Shown piece by piece: positions 605 through 31,483 of a stretch of DNA of 64,000 nt. Location of the stretch: positions 9,013-73,012 of the forward strand of contig CAYWSE010000006.1 of assembly GCA_964461025.1 (NCBI GenBank), given 5' to 3'. Numbering within the stretch: position 1 is the stretch's first letter; each line of letters starts with the position of its first letter. The notes beneath the pieces were generated by a model. That model was not told where the DNA came from. It ran no database searches and saw nothing but the letters and a program-made list of their open reading frames with translations. Source of the stretch: an uncultured Sphaerobacteraceae bacterium. Lineage in GTDB: Bacteria; Chloroflexota; Chloroflexia; Thermomicrobiales; UBA6265. Made by a program: the position numbers and the translations under genes.

Positions 605-3487
605 GTGCGTTCCCTGATAACCAGATGTGTGATCGTCCTCCTTTTGATGGCGCCCCTTCTCACAGTTGTGCCTGCTCCTCGCACGGCTGCCCAGGACGGC
701 GGCTATCTGGGCGAAGCGCCCTTCTACACAAGTGACGCCTGGGTCGTCGATGCCGGCGAAGCCGTTTTCGCCGCCGACCTCCCAACGGTCAATCCCGCCA
801 ATCGTGCCGCCTCCGTTGCCTATTTCAACAGCTACTACCGCGGTCAGGGCATGCCCGCCATCAGCTGGACGGGCAATCACCCATCCTGCAACGCCGGCAC
901 AACGTCCGCCGCATTCAAGGATGATGTCCTGCTGCGGCTCATGTACTTCCGGGGCATGGCCGGCGTACCGACCACGATCGGGTTCTCGAGCACCGCAAAC
1001 GCCAAGAACCAGCAGGCCGCTCTGCTCATGAGCGCCAATGGTTCGCTGTCGCACAATCCGCCCTCCGATTGGGCGTGCTGGACGGCCGACGCCAGCCAGG
1101 CCGCCGGTAGCTCGAATATCGCCATCGGCTACTTCGGTCGTGGCGCCGTCGATGCCTATATGAAGGACAGTGGTAGCAACAACTATCTGGCCGGGCATCG
1201 ACGCTGGCTGCTCTACCCGCAAACGACCACATTTGGCACCGGCGACACGCCGTTCGTATCCGCCAGCGGCGGCAATCCGTCCTACAGCTCGTCCAATACC
1301 ATGTGGGTCTTCGATTCGAATATCGGAGGTCCCCGGCCGGCCACCCGCGACGGCTACGTTGCCTGGCCGCCGCCCGGATATGTGCCGTACCAGGTCGTCT
1401 ATCCTCGCTGGACCTTTTCCTTCCCAGGCGCCAACTTTGCAAATGCCAGCGTCACCCTCACCCGCGACGGCGTGAACGTCCCGGTGACTGTCGAGTCCCG
1501 CACCAACAACGGCTACGGCGAGAACACGATCGTTTTTCGCCCCACGTCGATGGGGAGTGGCGACACCTGGGCCAACCCGGGAAACGACACGACCTACCGT
1601 GTGACGATCTCCAACGTCAACAACGCGAGTTTGTCGACCTTCTCCTATGACGTGACAGTCATCAATCCGGATGGACCGGGCGGCGGTGGGGCAACGTCGA
1701 CGCCCACGCGAACGCCGACCCGCACGCCGACAACGGGAACAGGTTCCTGGGCGCCGGGCATGATGGTGTCGGCCACAACCGGCGTCAATCTTCGTTCTGG
1801 CCCAGGTACGAACTATTCCTCGCTGGACATCGTCTCCAGTGGCACGCGCGGCTCCATCACGGGTGCGCCCACAACGGCTGGTGGGCACACGTGGTATCCC
1901 GTCGCCATGGAAGGGCACGCACCAGGCTGGATCGCCGGAACGTATTTGCGTGCGCTGAATATCACCGCGACGCCTTCGACCGGCAGCACGCCGACGCGCA
2001 CGCCCACCGCAACCCGCACGCCAACCCGGACACCCACGACGACCGCGACGCGAACACCGACCCGTACGCCCACCCCCAGTCGCACACCGACAACTGGCGC
2101 CTCGAACCCATTCGGACCTGGAATGATGGTGACGACCAGCGCCGCCGTCAATCTCCGGTCGGGTCCCGGCACGAACTACACATCGCATGGGATCGTCTCC
2201 AGCGGCACACGCGGCGCCATCACTGGAAGTCCGGTCGCGAGCGGCGGCTACACCTGGTATCCCGTCGCCATGCAGGGATTTCAGCCCGGATGGATCGCGG
2301 GCACGTATCTGCGCGCGCTGAACATCACAGCCACGCCATCGACCGGCTCGAGTCCAACGCCAACGCGAACGCCCACCAGAACACCGACGACCGTCAGCGG
2401 CGCATTCCCAATTGGAACCGGGGTTCAGACGACGGCGAATCTGCGACTCCGTTCCGGACCATCCTCCTCGGCGTCCACGATCCTCACGCTGCCGAACGGC
2501 GCCAATGGCACGATCACAGGAGCGCCCGTCGTCGCGGGCGGCTTCACCTGGTATCCGGCCACCTTCACAGGCTATGGATCCGGCTATGTTGCAGGAACCT
2601 ATCTTCGTGCGGTTAGTGCGGCATCGTCGGCGACGGCAACGCGAACGCCGACGCTGGCAGCAGGTGTGTTTCCCGTTGACTCAACAGTCCGGGCCACAGC
2701 GAATGTCAATATGCGCAGCAACGCCGGCACCGGTTACGGCGTGGTCGCCGTCATGCCGAATGGCGCGCAAGGAACGGTGCTCGCCGGTCCTGTCGCCAGC
2801 GGGAGCTACCAGTGGTATCGCGTTCAGGCCGCTGCGGGAACCGGCTGGGTTGCCGGAGCGTATCTGCAATTGATCAGCGTCTCCAGCGCCCCCGGTTCGA
2901 CCGACGCGGTTTCGCCCGCGAACACGGTCACACCGGTTCCGACAAACACTCCGGCGCCATCGGCCACTGAACCGCCCGCGACAGACACTCCCGTGCCGCC
3001 GCCGCCGACTGAGGTCGTCGAGGTCGTCGTACCGACAGCGGCCCTGGTTGTCGAGGAGGCACCGCCGCCCACCGCGACGAGCACCGTCGATCCCGGCCCG
3101 CAACCGCTGCAGATCGTCCGCATCCAGCGAACCGACGGTTCGACCTCCGGCGAGGTGCTTGTCGATGAGGACGAATCGACCGTTTGGATCGCGCCCGGCA
3201 TGCCGGCAGCGCAGGCCGCGGTTTTCGTCGCCGACACGGGAGCCGAGCAATGGATTTCGGAAGTCCGCTGGCAAACGGGCGCAGCGGGACTCAGCGGTCA
3301 GCTATACATCTCGATTTCACTCGACGGTCAGACCTGGACCGATCTCGATCTGACCCTCGCTCAAACCGACGGCAGCTGGTCCAGTCTCCCGGTGAACGCA
3401 TCGACGATGTTCGTCCGCTTCGCCTTCATCGCCGTCGACGACATCCCTGATCTCGGCGGCATCGCTGAGATAGAGTTGTGGCCGTAG
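605..3487 (+). CDS. Secreted multidomain protein: signal peptide, CAP/SCP(PR-1-like) domain, four SH3b repeats joined by Pro/Thr linkers, C-terminal discoidin (F5/8 type C)-like domain
   Basis: 960-aa ORF with GTG start and a hydrophobic N-terminus. CAP-like block: YFNSYYRG...HRRWLLYP. Four copies of a VNLRSGPGTNY...W(Y/I)...GW(I/V)AG(T/A)YL module. Linkers are TPTRTPTRTPT. The tail ISEVRWQTG...YISISLDGQTW...IAEIELWP resembles a discoidin domain. Confidence 0.85.
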   Translation: MRSLITRCVIVLLLMAPLLTVVPAPRTAAQDGGYLGEAPFYTSDAWVVDAGEAVFAADLPTVNPANRAASVAYFNSYYRGQGMPAISWTGNHPSCNAGTTSAAFKDDVLLRLMYFRGMAGVPTTIGFSSTANAKNQQAALLMSANGSLSHNPPSDWACWTADASQAAGSSNIAIGYFGRGAVDAYMKDSGSNNYLAGHRRWLLYPQTTTFGTGDTPFVSASGGNPSYSSSNTMWVFDSNIGGPRPATRDGYVAWPPPGYVPYQVVYPRWTFSFPGANFANASVTLTRDGVNVPVTVESRTNNGYGENTIVFRPTSMGSGDTWANPGNDTTYRVTISNVNNASLSTFSYDVTVINPDGPGGGGATSTPTRTPTRTPTTGTGSWAPGMMVSATTGVNLRSGPGTNYSSLDIVSSGTRGSITGAPTTAGGHTWYPVAMEGHAPGWIAGTYLRALNITATPSTGSTPTRTPTATRTPTRTPTTTATRTPTRTPTPSRTPTTGASNPFGPGMMVTTSAAVNLRSGPGTNYTSHGIVSSGTRGAITGSPVASGGYTWYPVAMQGFQPGWIAGTYLRALNITATPSTGSSPTPTRTPTRTPTTVSGAFPIGTGVQTTANLRLRSGPSSSASTILTLPNGANGTITGAPVVAGGFTWYPATFTGYGSGYVAGTYLRAVSAASSATATRTPTLAAGVFPVDSTVRATANVNMRSNAGTGYGVVAVMPNGAQGTVLAGPVASGSYQWYRVQAAAGTGWVAGAYLQLISVSSAPGSTDAVSPANTVTPVPTNTPAPSATEPPATDTPVPPPPTEVVEVVVPTAALVVEEAPPPTATSTVDPGPQPLQIVRIQRTDGSTSGEVLVDEDESTVWIAPGMPAAQAAVFVADTGAEQWISEVRWQTGAAGLSGQLYISISLDGQTWTDLDLTLAQTDGSWSSLPVNASTMFVRFAFIAVDDIPDLGGIAEIELWP
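1754..2875 (+). repeat. Four tandem SH3b-coding repeats (about 210 nt each) separated by (TPTR)n linker-coding low-complexity DNA
   Basis: Approximate repeat coordinates are 1754-1957, 2114-2320, 2402-2611 and 2663-2875. Repeats 1 and 2 are clearly similar at nucleotide level as well as protein level. Confidence 0.85.
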
Positions 3488-3497
3488 ATGGAGCATA

Positions 3498-3588
3498 GTG
3501 AATGGTCGATGGTAGATAGAGATTGGTGACTGGAACCAACCGCCATGCACCATCCACTATCTACCATCGACTACTGATAAATCACCAA
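3498..3588. repeat. Inverted arrays of heptanucleotide repeats forming a long hairpin between convergent genes (probable bidirectional terminator)
   Basis: Left arm units: gtgaatg gtcgatg gtagata gagattg gtgactg. Right arm units: ccgccat gcaccat ccactat ctaccat cgactac. A perfect 15-bp inverted repeat pairs 3505-3519 with 3557-3571. Confidence 0.7.
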
Positions 3589-4467
3589 ATCCGGCGGTGG
3601 TTGCAGCGCCATGACCTCGGCCGCCGTCATCAACGGTTCGTCCTGCCGGTACCAGAGCTTGAATCCGTAGAAATCATGGACCACGTTGCCGCCGACCACC
3701 GCGTAGGTGTCGCGCTTCGCGTCGGGACTACCCCAACCATCGACTTCCAGCACGAACTGCACTCCGGGGATTTGCTGAACCTGGTCCCGGTTGGTCAGGG
3801 AGTAGAGGTGGAACTGATGGACGATCAGCAGCTTCGGCGGCAATCCCTCGCTCAGCGCAATGTCAGCCAGGAGCTGCTGCGCCGTCAGCACATCGGATGC
3901 ATCGATCTGACCCAGATCGAGTCCTGGAGTTTCCCCTTCTCCTACCGCAAACTCCGGATCGATTGCCAGGTGCACATGGGGATAGGAGAGCCACTCGCGC
4001 ACCGCATCGATTTCCTGCGAGACGCTCTTGCGACCGAATTGCACATCGAGAATCAGCAGTAAATCGTTCGCCGCTGTGAAATCGACATAACGCCGTATCG
4101 TCTCGCTATCGGCATAGGCAATGTACATGCCGTCGGGGCCAGGATCGCGCTGGGCCACTGAGGCAATCACCTCGAATGCCAGCAGCCAGGGCCGCGAACT
4201 GTCCGCTGCTTCATATTCAGTGACCTGATCCTGCAGAATCGCCAGCAGCGTTTCCATGTCATATTCGCCGAGGATCCCCATCAGCTCATTGCCGGGGAAG
4301 CCGTAGTAGGCGAGGATGCGATTCGCCGGAAAGAGATACGGACCGCCGAACTGATCATTTGGACCGGATGTGCCGTCGCCCTGCGCGCTTGACAGTTCGA
4401 CGTTCAGCGCCGTCGCGCCAAGTGCGACCGCGGCCGGTACCAGCGCCTCACGGCGCGTAAATGTCAT
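3571..4467 (-). CDS. Tat-signal exported hypothetical protein
   Basis: ATG at 4467 is preceded by GAGGG. The N-terminus MTFTRREALVPAAVALGATAL is twin-arginine like. The rest is a long well-behaved ORF from which I cannot name a family. Confidence 0.7.
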   Translation of the reverse strand: MTFTRREALVPAAVALGATALNVELSSAQGDGTSGPNDQFGGPYLFPANRILAYYGFPGNELMGILGEYDMETLLAILQDQVTEYEAADSSRPWLLAFEVIASVAQRDPGPDGMYIAYADSETIRRYVDFTAANDLLLILDVQFGRKSVSQEIDAVREWLSYPHVHLAIDPEFAVGEGETPGLDLGQIDASDVLTAQQLLADIALSEGLPPKLLIVHQFHLYSLTNRDQVQQIPGVQFVLEVDGWGSPDAKRDTYAVVGGNVVHDFYGFKLWYRQDEPLMTAAEVMALQPPPDLVIYQ

Positions 4468-4502
4468 TCGGCCCTCTTTGCCGGACCCGGCGCTGGTCAC
4501 CA

Positions 4503-5663
4503 CTAGATGCTCAGGTTGCAGCCGGTAAAGCCCAGCTCGTAGCCATTCAACGTGGCCCGCACGCGTTGTTCGCCATTGCCATGCGCTTGCGGATCGTATT
4601 CGTTGATGAACTTGGGATCACCGAGGTTGAACACGAGATCATTGATCGCGGCTTCGATATCACCTGGATCAACGAGACCGCGCAACTCCGCATCTCGTGC
4701 CCAGACGCCGGAAAAGCAGTCCGCCATCAATTCCAGCTCGATGCTGTAGACCTCATTCCAGCTGTCTGGCCTGCTCGTCCGCTCAAGATCGATGCCGGTC
4801 TGTACGTGATGCGCCCACTCGTGGGCTATCACAAAAGCGGCGGCAAACGCGTTGCCCTCATCGACCATGTTCATCAGGAACGGCTCGTCCAGATACATCG
4901 TCGAGTCGAGCGGGCAATAGAACCCGTAGAAGCCTGTTGATGCAGGTCCGCATGCTGACTGCACCGTTCTCCCTTCCGGCACGACGACAACCCCCGGACT
5001 CTCATACGTATAGTCCGTGTAGCTCAGAACGTCCCGGTAAAACGCATCGAGATCATCGACGACCACCTGGAACACCTGGTCCCGGGGGACATCCTGAAGA
5101 TTCGTTGTCTGAGGAATGCTGGAGGTCGATCCTGAGCTCGCGGTCTGATCGTCGATCGCGGGCGCGTTCGCGTAATACGAATTCACCTGGTCGACAAAGT
5201 CCTTCGAGTCGCTGACGAACCACCGCCAGTTCCCATCTTCCTTTACGAGGTAGATCGAGTCGGAAACCCATTCTGGCTTGTTGTTTTCATCAAGAACGGG
5301 CTGTACGATGTCCACCCGAACGGCATCGGGGTAATACTTGCCATTGACGTCCCACGACCAGGAACCGAACTCCATACCGACGATTTCAGCCTGATCGACG
5401 AGCGTCCGTGCATAGACGTCATTGAAGAGATTCAGCGCGACAATTCTGGAAACCGCTGCCTGGGAGTCCGGATGCATCGAGTCATACAGGGCGTTGTAGT
5501 CGCGAGCGCTGGCCATCTCGAAGATGTCCTGCACGGTCCGGGCGACGGTGGCCTGTTCGCGAGCGCTTATCTCTGTGGATGTGGTCTGAGCCAGAACACC
5601 GGCGGTCGGGAAACCTGCGCCGATGAGTAGGACCAGAACGGCAATCATCAGTCTCTTCGCCAT
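4503..5663 (-). CDS. Putative neutral zinc metallopeptidase (YpfJ-like) with N-terminal signal/anchor
   Basis: Signal-like N-terminus MAKRLMIAVLVLLIGAGFPTAGVLAQ and an HExxH motif in FVIAHEWAHHVQ. Confidence 0.8.
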   Translation of the reverse strand: MAKRLMIAVLVLLIGAGFPTAGVLAQTTSTEISAREQATVARTVQDIFEMASARDYNALYDSMHPDSQAAVSRIVALNLFNDVYARTLVDQAEIVGMEFGSWSWDVNGKYYPDAVRVDIVQPVLDENNKPEWVSDSIYLVKEDGNWRWFVSDSKDFVDQVNSYYANAPAIDDQTASSGSTSSIPQTTNLQDVPRDQVFQVVVDDLDAFYRDVLSYTDYTYESPGVVVVPEGRTVQSACGPASTGFYGFYCPLDSTMYLDEPFLMNMVDEGNAFAAAFVIAHEWAHHVQTGIDLERTSRPDSWNEVYSIELELMADCFSGVWARDAELRGLVDPGDIEAAINDLVFNLGDPKFINEYDPQAHGNGEQRVRATLNGYELGFTGCNLSI

Positions 5664-24196: not shown

Positions 24197-25219
24197 TCAA
24201 TCGGCAGAATTGATTTCTTTCTTGTTGATCTTCCCGATTGAGGTGTTGAAGTGGTCCTCAACGGGGCCCCGCTCAGAGTCTCTCTGTTTCCGATAAACGT
24301 CATATTGCGCATGCGCCCGCTCGAGTGCCTGAATTCTCGACACCGATCCACTGTTCGAGAGGATTTCCCGTCCAGAAAGGGCGAGAAATCCGTCAATCTT
24401 TTCCAGCCAGTCCTTCATGTAAATCGGCGTTCTGCCGATTGCTTGCAGTTCGGCAAAGTCGAGGCAAAGCGTGACGATTCGGTTGAGCAGAGAGAGCTCG
24501 TCTTCAAAAAGATAGTTCTTGGCGATTTCTGCCTCGCTCCGAGTCAATTGAGCGCCAACCCAATTGGTCATCCCCATATTGGGCCTGTTGGCATCAGCGC
24601 GTGAGTAGATGATTTCTGCCGCTGTTTTGCCGTGCGCGGCAAAATGCATCTTGTTCTGTACGGTTGCAAAGAACAGCTTTGACACCTCGGAGGCAGGATC
24701 GTAGTCAATACTCGTTGAGAAGATGTCCAGAACCTTCCGCCAGAACACTCTCTCGCTGGACCGAATATCCCGGATACGTTCGAGGAGTTCCTCAAAGTAG
24801 TTTCCGCCCCCTGCTCGCTTGAGCAAATCATCGTTAAGGAGGAAACCTTTGATCAGGTACTCTCGAATGTGTTTTGTTGCCCAAATGCGAAACTGCGTGC
24901 CTCGATGTGATTTCACCCGGTATCCAACCGAAATAATGACGTCGAGGTTGTGATAGGCAATTTCCCTGGTCACCTCACGTTCGCCCTCGAGTTGAACTGT
25001 TGCAAAAAATGCAACAGTTGCCTCTCGGTCGAGTTCGCCTTCTGAGAAGACATTCGAGATATGCCGTGAAATGACGGACTTGTCTCGCTGAAACAACTCG
25101 GCCATTTGGTCGAGGGACAACCAGACTGTCTCGCCGATCAGGCGGACTTCGATGTCGGCGCCGTCTTCCGCAGCGAAGAGCAGAAACTCGGTTCTCTCAG
25201 GGATGCTCTGGTCTGCCAA
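24197..25219 (-). CDS. RhuM family virulence/DNA-binding protein
   Basis: Blocks ETVWLSLDQMAELFQRDKSVISRHI, AYHNLDVIISVGYRVKS..GTQFRIWAT and NYFEELLERIRDIRSSER. This gene has the lowest GC in the window by eye. Confidence 0.85.
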   Translation of the reverse strand: MADQSIPERTEFLLFAAEDGADIEVRLIGETVWLSLDQMAELFQRDKSVISRHISNVFSEGELDREATVAFFATVQLEGEREVTREIAYHNLDVIISVGYRVKSHRGTQFRIWATKHIREYLIKGFLLNDDLLKRAGGGNYFEELLERIRDIRSSERVFWRKVLDIFSTSIDYDPASEVSKLFFATVQNKMHFAAHGKTAAEIIYSRADANRPNMGMTNWVGAQLTRSEAEIAKNYLFEDELSLLNRIVTLCLDFAELQAIGRTPIYMKDWLEKIDGFLALSGREILSNSGSVSRIQALERAHAQYDVYRKQRDSERGPVEDHFNTSIGKINKKEINSAD

Positions 25220-28109: not shown

Positions 28110-29756
28110 CTATGGTTCGGGGGCCTCGGTCGTTGTCGCAGGATCTGGCGGAAACGTGGTCATCTCCGGCTCGCTTGTGGTCGTCGAGGTTGTCGGACTG
28201 GTTACGTTCGTTTCAACGGCCGGAATGGCCTCGGGTTCACCGGCGCACATGGCGTCATAAACGCAATCGGCGAAAAGCGCTGGCGCCGTCGGATAGATTC
28301 TGCTGCAGTTGGTGATGATCTGCGCCAGGATGTTTGGCGGGGCCGGAGTGACTCCTTCCGAACAATCCCAACTCTCCCAACAGGCTGATGCAAGTACGCA
28401 TTCTGCGAACGCTTCGTCATCTGTTGGGAAGTTCTCCCGGCATATACCCTTGATTGCTTCGAACACCGAAGCCAGAGGCAGTTCGCTTGCGCCAGGACAA
28501 ACCCATGCTGGGGGTGATGTAGTGGTCGTGGGCTGTTCGGTCGTGGTCGTCGGCGCTTCGCAGGGCTGATTCGCGTCCTGGCAAGCTCCATTGCAGCAGA
28601 TCATTCCGCTCTCGCAACAGCCCTCGGACCCCGGACAACAAATGGGAAGAGTGCTCGGACAACAATGAGACCCAACACCGCAGCATATGGCCTCGGGATA
28701 TGGGCAGCACCCCCATTGACCCGCACTGAGAGGACAGCACGTTTCTAATCCGCCACAGGTACCCGCCGGGCAGGTTGAACCGGCACACGAACTGCCCGAA
28801 GCCGGTTCGCATCGACCGTCACAGCAGATATGGTCTGGAGACACGCCACACTGGGCCTCGTTCGCATCGGTGTCGGCAACGCATTCATGACTGCCGTCGC
28901 AAACCTGACAATCAGGGCAGTCTCCCGTGCCGCCCTGTGCTACGGCTACGCAGGTGTTGGCGATGCATGCCCAGCACGCTTCATTGCCGCTTGCTGTTAG
29001 CTGCGGACAATCCGGGTTATTGCAGCATTGATACGCGGGATCAATGCACGTTGGCGTACCGAGACCTTCATTCCGGCACACGACTCGGCCTGCAGGACAG
29101 CAAGTGAGACCCGGTCTGGCAGGTTGCGGCGCGCTGGTCGGTGAAATCGGTTCGAAAACGAACGTCGACGATGGATCGAAGCAGGCGCCGTCGCAGCATC
29201 GATCGTCGCAGGTGAGGTGAGTGGGACAGCACACTTCTTCCTGGACAAACGGACCCTCCGGGAAAACGCGGGTAAGGCAGGTATGGGTGGCGTTGCAGCA
29301 CTCTCTGTCGCAGCACTGCTCCGAAGTAGGGCAGCACTCCAAACCGCATGGAAACGATCCGTGGCCATCCTGCCCATCACAGCAAAAGTCCGCGTTGCCT
29401 GAACGAGCGCACGTCCCCGCAGAGCAGCAAACCAGGCCTCCCGTGCATACAACATCACCAGGCACATCGCAGCATGTACCGTCGCGTCTGCACGCGTCTT
29501 CGGGACAGCAGGTGGAACCGCACGCCGACTCGCCAGGTGGGCAGGTGGTCGTCGTCGGGATTGTGGGCTTGGCCGGCGGTGGAACCGTTGGTCGTGTCGA
29601 AATCGATCGCGCATCGACCCCTGGGGTCGGCAGGATGCCACCGGCCGACGCTCCGCCAAGTCCAATCAAACCCTTGAGGAGGCTGCGCCGAGATGCACGA
29701 GTGGCGAACGAGCGCACAAACCAGTCGAACTGCTGGCCGTCCAAGTTCAGTACCAC
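28110..29756 (-). CDS. Tat-signal, extremely cysteine-rich secreted protein with granulin-like CC-ladder modules and Thr/Pro linkers
   Basis: Twin-arginine motif SRRSLLKGLIGLGGASAGG. About 72 Cys in 548 aa by my count. CCPLSAGQWGCCPYPEAICCGVGSHCCP has the granulin spacing. Two C-terminal copies of a (I/F)..I...C....PT....FA.CV....C motif. Confidence 0.8.
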   Translation of the reverse strand: MVLNLDGQQFDWFVRSFATRASRRSLLKGLIGLGGASAGGILPTPGVDARSISTRPTVPPPAKPTIPTTTTCPPGESACGSTCCPEDACRRDGTCCDVPGDVVCTGGLVCCSAGTCARSGNADFCCDGQDGHGSFPCGLECCPTSEQCCDRECCNATHTCLTRVFPEGPFVQEEVCCPTHLTCDDRCCDGACFDPSSTFVFEPISPTSAPQPARPGLTCCPAGRVVCRNEGLGTPTCIDPAYQCCNNPDCPQLTASGNEACWACIANTCVAVAQGGTGDCPDCQVCDGSHECVADTDANEAQCGVSPDHICCDGRCEPASGSSCAGSTCPAGTCGGLETCCPLSAGQWGCCPYPEAICCGVGSHCCPSTLPICCPGSEGCCESGMICCNGACQDANQPCEAPTTTTEQPTTTTSPPAWVCPGASELPLASVFEAIKGICRENFPTDDEAFAECVLASACWESWDCSEGVTPAPPNILAQIITNCSRIYPTAPALFADCVYDAMCAGEPEAIPAVETNVTSPTTSTTTSEPEMTTFPPDPATTTEAPEP

Positions 29757-29936
29757 CTTCCCGAAATGCGATGGAAGTACGAGTGCGTGCTGATGATTAT
29801 GTCGCTATGGGCGATTCTGGTCAACCTGAGAGGCGATCAGCGAGGAATGTCTCCGCTACTCCATGTCGCCCGGGTAGTGGAGGACATTCGCGTCCGTCGC
29901 ACAGCTATCCCCACGCTCATCACATGAGATCGGGTG

Positions 29937-29993: not shown

Positions 29994-31277
29994 TTAGTCT
30001 CCAGGTTCGGCCGAGGCCTCTTCGTCGGCCGCAGGCCGTTCGAGAATCACCTCCGGATCCTTGATCACGTCCCGCGCATCGAGGGGCGTTCCGAAAACAA
30101 CCTCGACCACACCGTGATCCTCCATTGCCTGTGCCGATACCGGTGGAACATTCTGTTGCCCTGTCGCCACCAGCGCCAGCCGTTGAATCACTTCATGCGC
30201 TCGGCCGTCCCAGATGAGTCCCTCCGAAAGGGCCGCCAGCACTCGTGGCTGGCCCGGCGTGAAGATCACGCCGACATCGTGTACCGCGTGGATGAGATTG
30301 CCGGGTTTGTGCGCGGTGCTGAATCGCGAGTCGAGAAGCACCGGTATGCGGTCGTCGATCTCCTGAAACCGCAAAATCGAGAGGATTTGTTCGCTGACGT
30401 ATGGACTGACAACCGTGCCCTGTATCAGACCGAGCTGATAAGCGGCCATATCGCGCGCGGTGGTCAGATTCACTGGACCGGTCGCTTCGAAATTCTCCTC
30501 GATGAACGCCCGGGCGACAGCGGCTTCTGCGTCGGTGCTGTCCTCGCCGGGTGTGGGTGGCCAGAGCGACGTCGTTGCGGGGTCGACATAAAAGTATGTC
30601 TGAGCCATGCCCGATTCCCGAGCCGTTTGCGTCAGCGATTCCCAGTTGGTGAAGCCAAGCAGAATCCGGGCCGAGACATTGCTCGAGTAGTCGCCGACGT
30701 AGTAGAGCAACTCCCGGATCGTGGCAGTGCTTCCGATGTCCGCTGCTGTGAAGAATGTGTCCCCGTCGTCTCCCTCGACAAACAGTTCCGGAGCCAGATA
30801 GATCTCCTGATCGAGAGAAATTTCGCCCCGCTCAACGCGCTTCAATATGTCGGCCATGACGATCAGCTTGTAGAGACTGGCCGTGATGAAGGGAATCGTC
30901 GAGTTGCGCGAGTAGAGCACCTGGCCCTCGTCGTCCAGAATGACAACGCCGAAAACGCCGTCTTCCTGGTCGATCAGACCGTCGGCGATACTCCGCATCT
31001 CCGGAGGCCATTCGTCGGTATAGGGAATCGGCGTTTGGGTTGGCTCCGGCGTATTCGTCGCGGTTGGCATCGGCGTCGGCGAAACGCCAATCGAGAGCGG
31101 GGTCTGAACCTCTGATGTGGGAGAAAATTGCTGGGAGACTTCACCGCCTCGTTGCGAACCCATTCCCGCTGATCCACACCCCGAAAGCACCAAAATGCAC
31201 AGCGCTATGAGCGCCATGCCTCTGTTTCTGGAGGCATGAACCGAGCGAATCTGAATTCGTTGGTGCGAGCGAATCAT
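29994..31277 (-). CDS. Lipoprotein, class A beta-lactamase-related serine hydrolase
   Basis: Lipobox LVLSGCGS after a basic N-region (start 31277; alternatives at 31217 and 31331). SxxK motif in FITASLYKLIV. Confidence 0.75.
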   Translation of the reverse strand: MIRSHQRIQIRSVHASRNRGMALIALCILVLSGCGSAGMGSQRGGEVSQQFSPTSEVQTPLSIGVSPTPMPTATNTPEPTQTPIPYTDEWPPEMRSIADGLIDQEDGVFGVVILDDEGQVLYSRNSTIPFITASLYKLIVMADILKRVERGEISLDQEIYLAPELFVEGDDGDTFFTAADIGSTATIRELLYYVGDYSSNVSARILLGFTNWESLTQTARESGMAQTYFYVDPATTSLWPPTPGEDSTDAEAAVARAFIEENFEATGPVNLTTARDMAAYQLGLIQGTVVSPYVSEQILSILRFQEIDDRIPVLLDSRFSTAHKPGNLIHAVHDVGVIFTPGQPRVLAALSEGLIWDGRAHEVIQRLALVATGQQNVPPVSAQAMEDHGVVEVVFGTPLDARDVIKDPEVILERPAADEEASAEPGD

Positions 31278-31483
31278 GCTACTTTCGGACGCAATAAAAC
31301 TCTGATTTGGCGATCCCACCACTATCGCCATGAAGCACTCTGCAACGTGTCGGTACGGCCGTTTCCGGCAAGGCCCTCAGTGCCTGCGGTGTTCGCCAGG
31401 CGAAACGCGGCAAGGGTACCACTTCGACCAGCGCCGCCCGCGGCAAAACCGCCCAGCAAACTCCCAGCTTCTCGGATCAAGTC

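Follow-up and report, generated by a model that had tools for sequence, protein, structure and literature searches.

The literature regards granulin as an invention of eukaryotes. The principal published survey of its evolution records it, among others, in animals, slime moulds, plants and an apusozoan, lists no prokaryote and never mentions them, and describes a fold of four β-hairpins that are stacked in a twisted ladder and pinned by six disulfides (PMC4527844). Literature searches brought up no bacterial or viral granulin. That a 'eukaryotic' disulfide-rich domain can occur in secreted proteins of bacteria has a precedent in the Stig1/MXAN_6577-like proteins (PF04885, NF041328), which differ in fold and family from the module described here and are already catalogued for bacteria by NCBIfam. 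With regard to export, signals for twin-arginine translocation (Tat) combine a twin-arginine (RR) motif, a weakly hydrophobic, Gly-rich h-region, an AxA cleavage site and a basic 'Sec-avoidance' residue, and their typical cargo is a folded protein loaded with a cofactor (PMC7317946). Here we describe a gene in a 64-kb stretch of DNA (the window; contig CAYWSE010000006.1, from an uncultured soil-type bacterium of the Thermomicrobiales) whose predicted product joins an RR-type leader and a cysteine-rich core to a homologue of the eukaryotic granulin module.

A granulin homologue in a bacterial protein

The original prediction, made without database searches, had pointed to an open reading frame (ORF) on the minus strand at 28110–29756 with about 72 cysteines and a granulin-type ladder of paired cysteines (CC). 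Read from its GTG, the ORF encodes 548 amino acids (aa) with exactly 72 cysteines (13.1%) and 19 CC pairs, divided 46, 18 and 8 over the core, the granulin ladder and the C-terminal motifs; no other ORF of the window exceeds 3% Cys. Profile searches recover the granulin likeness above the gathering cutoff: Pfam Granulin (PF00396) matches aa 339–370 over profile positions 1–32 of 42, with 33.2 bits against a cutoff of 20.9 (E = 5.7 × 10−8). Granulin chains in the PDB match at E values from 2.6 × 10−8 to 1.8 × 10−5 (phmmer; human granulin C/5, 2jyt, 2.6 × 10−8; granulin A, 2jye, 2.8 × 10−7; granulin-2; zebrafish AaE), and outside the granulins no PDB entry improves on E = 0.89 in this search. 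An independent hidden Markov model (HMM) built only from eukaryotic granulin modules gives the segment 42.7 bits (36–43 across runs). Shuffling the segment 1,000 times with its cysteines fixed yields a mean of 0.2 bits (s.d. 6.2, maximum 23.7; z = 6.9 for the real segment), and full shuffles average −25.6. Because no Cys-fixed shuffle reaches the real score, the match exceeds what Cys spacing provides; nor is Cys richness alone its source, since the protein family to which the gene belongs (below) is equally rich in Cys and CC yet has no match to the HMM.

The stretch singled out at the outset, CPAGTC...HCCP, corresponds to aa 329–367 (nucleotides 28656–28772) and has the spacing C-x4-C-x5-CC-x8-CC-x6-CC-x5-CC, as claimed. 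The full 12-Cys motif, C329-x4-C334-x5-CC-x8-CC-x6-CC-x5-CC-x6-C373-x6-C380, deviates from the canonical motif that we tested (C-x5-6-C-x5-CC-x8-CC-x6-CC-x5-CC-x5-6-C-x5-6-C) solely in its first gap, which is one residue short, as it is in two protist-like multi-module transcripts of metagenomic origin (L013 and L014). Alignment with 15 animal modules shows that all cysteines are kept together with the residues of invariant or near-invariant columns (T339, G346, P352, A356, H364 and P367), in their usual context of T before the first CC, GQWG before the second, P-x-P-x-A, H before the fourth and P after it. The near-invariant Asp after the third CC is replaced by Val. Across non-Cys positions, 18 of 40 are identical to the best eukaryotic modules. 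At the level of sequence, these comparisons show that the cassette and the granulin module of eukaryotes are truly homologous.

The likeness to described granulins (human A and C, 2jye and 2jyt; zebrafish AaE, 6cku) covers the 12-Cys pattern with its four CC pairs, the signatures T-CC, GxWGCCP, PxA-CC and HCCP, a secreted context and predicted β-hairpins. Unlike these, the window module is bacterial, stands singly inside an unrelated cysteine-rich protein behind an RR-type leader rather than a eukaryotic signal peptide, begins with C-x4-C, lacks the Asp after the third CC and runs on into a longer ladder of 18 Cys through three extra CC pairs. The protein has neither a progranulin nor a plant RD21-type architecture, as it contains one module, no repeat chain and no papain-like peptidase domain. 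With the two protist-like transcripts the module shares its CPAGTC-x5-CC start and 57–58% identity over 52 aa, and with a green-alga RD21a-type sequence its C-terminal half, HCCPSDLPVC-x6-C (CC-x6-C-x6-C); both of these types, unlike the window protein, are eukaryotic and have 12 Cys in each module, in progranulins of several modules or as appendages of proteases.

An extended ladder and its predicted fold

The claim that the ladder continues past the granulin spacing also held: positions 28560–28772 encode aa 329–399, which is the whole ladder. After the fourth CC pair it runs -x6-CC-x5-CC-x5-CC-x3-C-x6-C. The canonical module is already complete from C329 to C380, as comparison with the green-alga RD21a-type sequence shows (alga WGCCPMPEAICCDDNEHCCPSDLPVC-DTDEGRC, window WGCCPYPEAICCGVGSHCCPSTLPICCPGSEGCC). 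Six extra cysteines (374, 381, 387, 388, 392 and 399) turn the last two single cysteines into CC pairs and add a further CC pair and a C-x6-C cap, giving seven CC pairs and 18 Cys in total; this extension has no counterpart among the 102 eukaryotic and viral modules that we collected.

Granulin disulfides are laddered, connecting cysteines 1-3, 2-5, 4-7, 6-9, 8-11 and 10-12. The even count of 18 in the window segment is compatible with such pairing, and a continuation of the pattern would give nine disulfides (1-3, 2-5, 4-7, 6-9, 8-11, 10-13, 12-15, 14-17 and 16-18), so that the extended module may form a longer hairpin stack than the four of the granulin fold. In the full-length AlphaFold model, hairpins run through the ladder with a predicted local distance difference test score (pLDDT) of 66–85. 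The refuting outcome named in the original prediction (no significant profile match together with a model incompatible with stacked β-hairpins) did not arise: such hairpins are seen in the model, and the five best Foldseek matches in the PDB are all granulins, albeit weak ones (E = 0.02–1.6). The modelling supports a granulin fold for the window module but does not prove it, because pLDDT is moderate and the Foldseek matches are weak. One may speculate, from hints in the peptide pattern, that the extension arose through tandem duplication of an 'I-CC-x5-CC' hairpin; at the DNA level, we found no similarity between the hairpins beyond the Cys codons.

A cassette-swapping family of the Thermomicrobiales

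A word-index search and an exhaustive phmmer search together identify a family of about 76 proteins; phmmer with aa 1–328 retrieves 70 proteins at E ≤ 1 × 10−3 among 1.84 billion representatives. The named sources are metagenome-assembled genomes (MAGs) of Thermomicrobiales/Chloroflexia, and a genome scan located 12 family loci in four MAGs, with up to 5 copies per genome, often in tandem. Members open with the leader MDxxRFDxLxRxxxxGxSRRxxLKGLLGLGGAA...DAR, followed by a Pro/Thr linker, and continue into the core CGLECC...CCDxECC...CLTRVFxEGPxVEEExCCP...CCDGxC; the window protein matches both. In the window protein, aa 120–200 of this core are modelled with a pLDDT of 77–92 (AlphaFold2), and the full-length model has no useful match in the PDB (best E = 0.9).

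C-terminal to the core, the family carries variable Cys-rich cassettes between Thr-rich linkers, and the number of CC pairs reaches 36 per protein. One relative (P0018) has a Stig1/MXAN_6577-like cassette (PF04885, E = 1 × 10−11), two others (P0002 and P0004) have SpaA prealbumin-like cassettes (PF17802), and some members give weak knottin-like matches; the Stig1 and SpaA cassettes indicate that the family swaps cassettes. It is a small, rapidly diversifying family from Thermomicrobiales. None of the 75 other members contains a granulin module at E ≤ 10 with the eukaryote-only HMM, and none was found in the 12 related genome loci. The original prediction had allowed that such ladder proteins could prove common in this lineage. 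This holds for Cys-rich CC proteins, which are multi-copy in Thermomicrobiales, but not for granulin-type ladders. The second CC-rich region that it described is likewise present, at aa 72–192, but is not granulin; we considered it as a degenerate or second module and rejected this, as it lacks any HMM signal and constitutes the core of the family itself.

The arrangement of the relatives varies. Tandem arrays of two to three or more large paralogues occur at L003/L005, L006/L007 and L004 (MAGs ACE_CHL14 and CA_2019_TPBF_208), with frames that reach ~1,750 codons from stop to stop; one copy is present in the window. A member 45% identical to the window protein lies on a 4.8-kb contig labelled uncultured Steroidobacter sp. 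(L001, CAZBKC010000288.1), probably a Thermomicrobiales contig that was mis-binned into a gammaproteobacterial MAG. An ORF for a cyanophycin synthetase-like ATP-grasp protein lies directly downstream of the family member in L001 (2071–4074), L003 (7915–9864) and L004 (5129–7189), and is absent from the window.

Granulin modules outside cellular eukaryotes

As far as tested, a bacterial granulin is as unusual as had been claimed, there being none in paralogues, related loci or the species-genome scan. That scan covered 185,579 prokaryotic species genomes (one each, GTDB) with two narrow patterns, [SAF]GQWGCCP and [YF]P[EV]A[VI]CC, and returned 45 pattern matches with no confirmed relative; a scan of the window protein against NCBIfam likewise returned no granulin model. 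In metagenomes, all 31 of 31 confirmed relatives are multi-module progranulin-like sequences and look eukaryotic, with signal peptides of eukaryotic type, exon-like truncations or an AATAAA signal. Among the short matches are eukaryotic transcripts from Tara and MMETSP as well as sequences of tardigrades and a green alga; cluster look-ups of the closest eukaryotic-looking modules gave no taxonomy beyond Tara/MERC and MMETSP sources.

Granulin also occurs on a giant-virus-sized contig. The 504,798-bp IMG/VR sequence UViG_3300027828_000445 encodes two secreted, Cys-rich, multi-domain proteins of 342 and 602 aa with one granulin module each (L048 3887–4915 and L049 2369–4177), next to an ORF full of 'TNLTEIP' repeats that resemble leucine-rich repeats. 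As in the window protein, one granulin module here forms part of a larger protein that is secreted, Cys-rich and built of several cassettes, outside cellular eukaryotes; in contrast, module identity is 42–47%, the viral genome is AT-rich and the remainder of the proteins is dissimilar. The modules on the viral contig indicate that granulin is mobile beyond cellular eukaryotes and, together with the bacterial copy, that it moves between domains of life.

A forest-soil scaffold (L046 1–7850; ENA HuN_forest_Scaff3635503) has 68% G+C content (GC) and 12 packed genes on both strands without a Pfam match, and its proteins show F-box-like N-termini and KRRR/AKKPR motifs. One gene (2575–2850; P0031) encodes a single granulin module with a signal peptide. 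The scaffold has the look of a giant virus rich in GC or, alternatively, of a very compact eukaryote.

Leader, export and redox state

The original prediction called the leader a clear twin-arginine signal. The motif SRRSLLKG is indeed present at aa 22–29, agrees with the consensus and does not vary within the family, but the curated Tat HMMs score below their cutoffs, so that 'clear' is too strong and the export route has to be inferred. RR is present in 76 of 76 family members; in 21 aligned members D6, F10, D11, S22, R23, R24, A49 and R50 are invariant, and only 5 to 9 of these 21 score with the Tat HMMs even at E ≤ 1. The window h-region GLIGLGGASAGGI has a mean Kyte–Doolittle (KD) hydropathy of 1.31, compared with a family mean of 0.88 with 27% Gly, and a basic residue always follows the AxA site (VDA↓R in the window protein, with A49 and R50 invariant). 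A conserved n-region, MDxxRFDxLxR, precedes RR in all members and is predicted to be helical (pLDDT ~75); it might serve as a chaperone handle. The leader thus shares with described Tat signals (TIGR01409, PF10518) the SRRxLLK motif, the Gly-rich, weakly hydrophobic h-region, the AxA site with its basic residue and a long n-region, and differs in scoring below both cutoffs and in carrying the extra n-region motif. Its passenger is also unlike classic Tat cargo, being ~500 aa long, disulfide-rich and free of a cofactor domain.

The number of cysteines is even in 39 of 41 family proteins of at least 400 aa (P = 4 × 10−10; P0001–P0025 and P0085–P0138), and one of the two exceptions looks frameshifted. 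This parity, read from the sequences, argues strongly that every Cys of these proteins is paired in a disulfide, and therefore for maturation in an oxidizing, extracytoplasmic setting. The leader would direct export, signal peptidase would cut after VDA (aa 49) and the cysteines would be oxidized outside the cytoplasm.

Elsewhere in the window, the minus-strand ORF at 3571–4503 begins with MTFTRREALVPAAVALGATAL, another RR-type leader, and the ORFs at 605–3487, 4503–5663 and 29994–31331 have classic hydrophobic leaders of the general secretory (Sec) or lipoprotein type.

Origin of the cassette and route of export

Against 102 distinct eukaryotic and viral modules, the window module has a median identity of 49% (interquartile range 46–51%, best 57–58%), compared with 50–62% (median 56%) among those modules themselves across sources. 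These lower identities place it at the edge of eukaryotic diversity, with no donor identifiable; the module's nearest kin are transcripts of eukaryotes and genes of giant viruses. Its GC (0.60) and GC at third codon positions (GC3, 0.58) equal those of the whole gene (0.61 and 0.61), which indicates that acquisition was not recent. Most likely, a eukaryote or giant virus supplied the cassette by horizontal transfer, and it would then have taken on the base composition of its host; one capture into a cassette-shuffling family, followed by lengthening of the ladder, would be the most economical account. On balance we favour the reading of an exported modular protein, with all its cysteines in disulfides, that captured a eukaryote-type granulin cassette, and consider it rather probable as a whole.

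Several observations weigh against this reading. There is no donor, as the best identities of 57–58% are spread over protist-like and animal modules. The main weakness is that the protein is a singleton, known from one contig, in a cluster of one and as one copy in 15 billion proteins, with no orthologue closer than ~45% identity; as a singleton, the module is not independently confirmed and its acquisition is undatable. The two scan patterns were narrow, so divergent bacterial granulins could exist. Modelled alone, the module has a mean pLDDT of 66.8, and its Foldseek matches to granulins have E values of 0.02–0.08 and template modelling (TM) scores of 0.27–0.46. For the leader, TIGR01409 gives 14.2 against a cutoff of 16.7 and PF10518 gives 10.5 against 22.7. 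Furthermore, Tat does not normally accept unfolded proteins, and Sec can serve many RR leaders as well (PMC7317946).

A family so rich in CC pairs, three of whose members (P0095, P0125 and P0132) have loosely similar CC spacings, could in principle have drifted, by chance or selection, into granulin-like spacing in its own CC-rich cassettes without homology. We regard such convergence as improbable, given that the best Cys-fixed shuffle falls short of the real segment (23.7 versus 42.7 bits), that the best eukaryotic modules agree with it at 18 of 40 non-Cys positions and that intermediates are missing, because no other family member scores at E ≤ 10. The single copy in 15 billion proteins, on a MAG-type contig, raises instead the question of an assembly or binning artefact, in which a eukaryotic granulin fragment was mis-joined into a bacterial gene, and eukaryotic granulin transcripts are common in environmental data. 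However, the module lies in frame in one ORF between family-typical sequence and Thr-rich linkers on both flanks, it has the GC and GC3 of the host gene, its best identity to any eukaryotic module is just 57–58% and its 6-Cys extension is unseen in the 102 eukaryotic and viral modules, which together make a mis-join very improbable. The direction of transfer could also be the reverse, granulin being an old bacterial cassette that eukaryotes inherited or acquired: the family shuffles many Cys-rich cassettes, Stig1 is common to bacteria and plants, and the window module stands a little further from eukaryotic modules than these do from one another (medians of 49% and 56%). One bacterial instance has to be set against a wide spread over animals, slime moulds, plants and apusozoans (PMC4527844), and neither the 75 paralogues nor the narrow-pattern scan of prokaryote genomes yielded another, so we give a bacterial origin little credence. 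Capture from a eukaryote or giant virus remains the preferred account.

For the export route, the sequence features leave roughly even odds that the protein travels through Tat. If the leader used Sec instead, the chain would cross unfolded and oxidize outside, and the conflict between Tat and disulfides would vanish; this is consistent with the scores of both curated Tat HMMs below cutoff and with the argument that a reducing cytoplasm does not allow a protein with 36 disulfides to fold. We take Sec to be a real possibility but lean against it, in view of an SRR that every aligned member keeps, an h-region that is short, weakly hydrophobic and rich in Gly (family mean KD 0.88), the basic residue that always follows AxA, and the classic hydrophobic Sec or lipoprotein leaders, without RR, of other exported proteins in the window. 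Alternatively, the cysteines might bind metals (Zn, Fe–S or in a metallothionein-like manner) and the protein fold around cofactors before it leaves the cytoplasm, in the manner of classic Tat substrates, which would suit both the typical cofactor-loaded cargo of Tat (PMC7317946) and a protein with 13% Cys. But the recognizable cassettes (granulin, Stig1, knottin-like) are disulfide domains, Cys parity is strictly even across the family, His is scarce (6 of 548 residues) and no metal-cluster family was matched; metal binding is accordingly highly improbable. The most far-reaching combination, namely that Thermomicrobiales send long, cofactor-free proteins with 30–70 disulfides through Tat, and that a captured granulin was lengthened to 18 Cys and may engage eukaryotic partners, draws on ~76 proteins with an invariant RR leader, the extra n-region motif and an even Cys count, but seems unlikely. 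Were Tat the route, the family would be a notable exception: either Tat carries unfolded, reduced chains far longer than known, or the cytoplasm folds these proteins oxidatively, perhaps aided by a factor that binds MDxxRFDxLxR.

Possible function and significance

The rigid, protease-resistant cassettes are probably extracellular binding or adhesion modules on flexible linkers, a reading suggested by the leader, the flexible linkers, the rigid cassettes, the tandem diversifying paralogues and the SpaA-type cassettes in relatives. The Thr/Pro linker chain may be glycosylated, and the protein is unlikely to be an enzyme. From the known partners of granulin, a role toward eukaryotic partners (predators or hosts) or papain-like proteases can be proposed as speculation. 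With the caveat that it is a single metagenome-derived sequence, this natural 18-Cys variant tests how far a β-hairpin ladder extends, and could be useful for work on granulin folding and for the engineering of disulfide-rich scaffolds. The host family raises the question of how proteins with dozens of disulfides are exported behind a Tat-like leader.

Gene features

Translation probably starts at a TTG at 29744, giving 544 aa, because a Shine–Dalgarno-like sequence lies 8 nt upstream and homologues open with MDGxRFD; the database copy (P0001) also has 544 aa. A candidate σ70-like promoter lies ~50 nt upstream of the start (Table 1). The small Cys motif noted earlier at the C-terminus is a real two-copy repeat (local alignment score 46, compared with 21.9 ± 4.5 for shuffles); AlphaFold2 predicts helices in this region, and the repeats have no relative in Pfam, the PDB or the fetched sequences.

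Table 1. Features of the cysteine-rich gene, in window coordinates (aa numbered from the GTG).
Feature	Position	Strand	Basis or remark
Candidate σ70-like promoter, TTGACC-17-CATAAT	29796–29824	−	10/12 consensus matches; consensus match alone
Shine–Dalgarno-like GAAGGTGG	29753–29760	−	Sequence read; 8 nt before TTG 29744–29742
Coding sequence of Cys-rich protein, stop codon included	28110–29756	−	548 aa (GTG); probably 544 aa (TTG)
RR-type leader	29610–29744	−	n-region DGQQFDWFVR, SRRSLLK (29673–29693), Gly-rich h-region, putative VDA↓R cleavage site
Pro/Thr linker 1 (aa 50–71)	29544–29609	−	Sequence, alignment; pLDDT <50
Family-specific Cys-rich core (aa 72–328, 46 Cys)	28773–29543	−	Conserved across Thermomicrobiales family
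Canonical 12-Cys granulin module (aa 329–380)	28617–28772	−	Pfam, PDB matches, alignment, shuffle control
Ladder extension (aa 381–399)	28560–28616	−	Cys spacing; β-hairpin predicted aa 385–394
Thr/Pro linker 2 (aa 400–418)	28503–28559	−	Sequence; pLDDT <50
Two copies of small helical Cys motif (aa 419–465 and 466–510; 5 + 3 Cys)	28227–28502	−	Internal repeat score
Cys-free Thr/Pro/Glu-rich tail (aa 511–548), no anchor motif	28113–28226	−	Sequence; pLDDT 30–42

Genomic neighbourhood

The neighbours of the Cys-rich gene are bacterial (two beta-lactamase-family hydrolases, an SNase-type nuclease, FTHFS and RhuM), and no neighbouring gene is common to the window and the other family loci, so that gene context gives no hint of function. 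Across the whole 64 kb we found no tRNA or tmRNA gene and no Rfam match at gathering score. Between 22000 and 26000, GC is 0.55–0.58, compared with ~0.62 elsewhere in the window. This low-GC stretch, which lies just downstream of the neighbourhood of the Cys-rich gene, may represent a small island of acquired DNA; the RhuM-family gene (24197–25219) lies within it and adjoins a gene for a luciferase-like monooxygenase.

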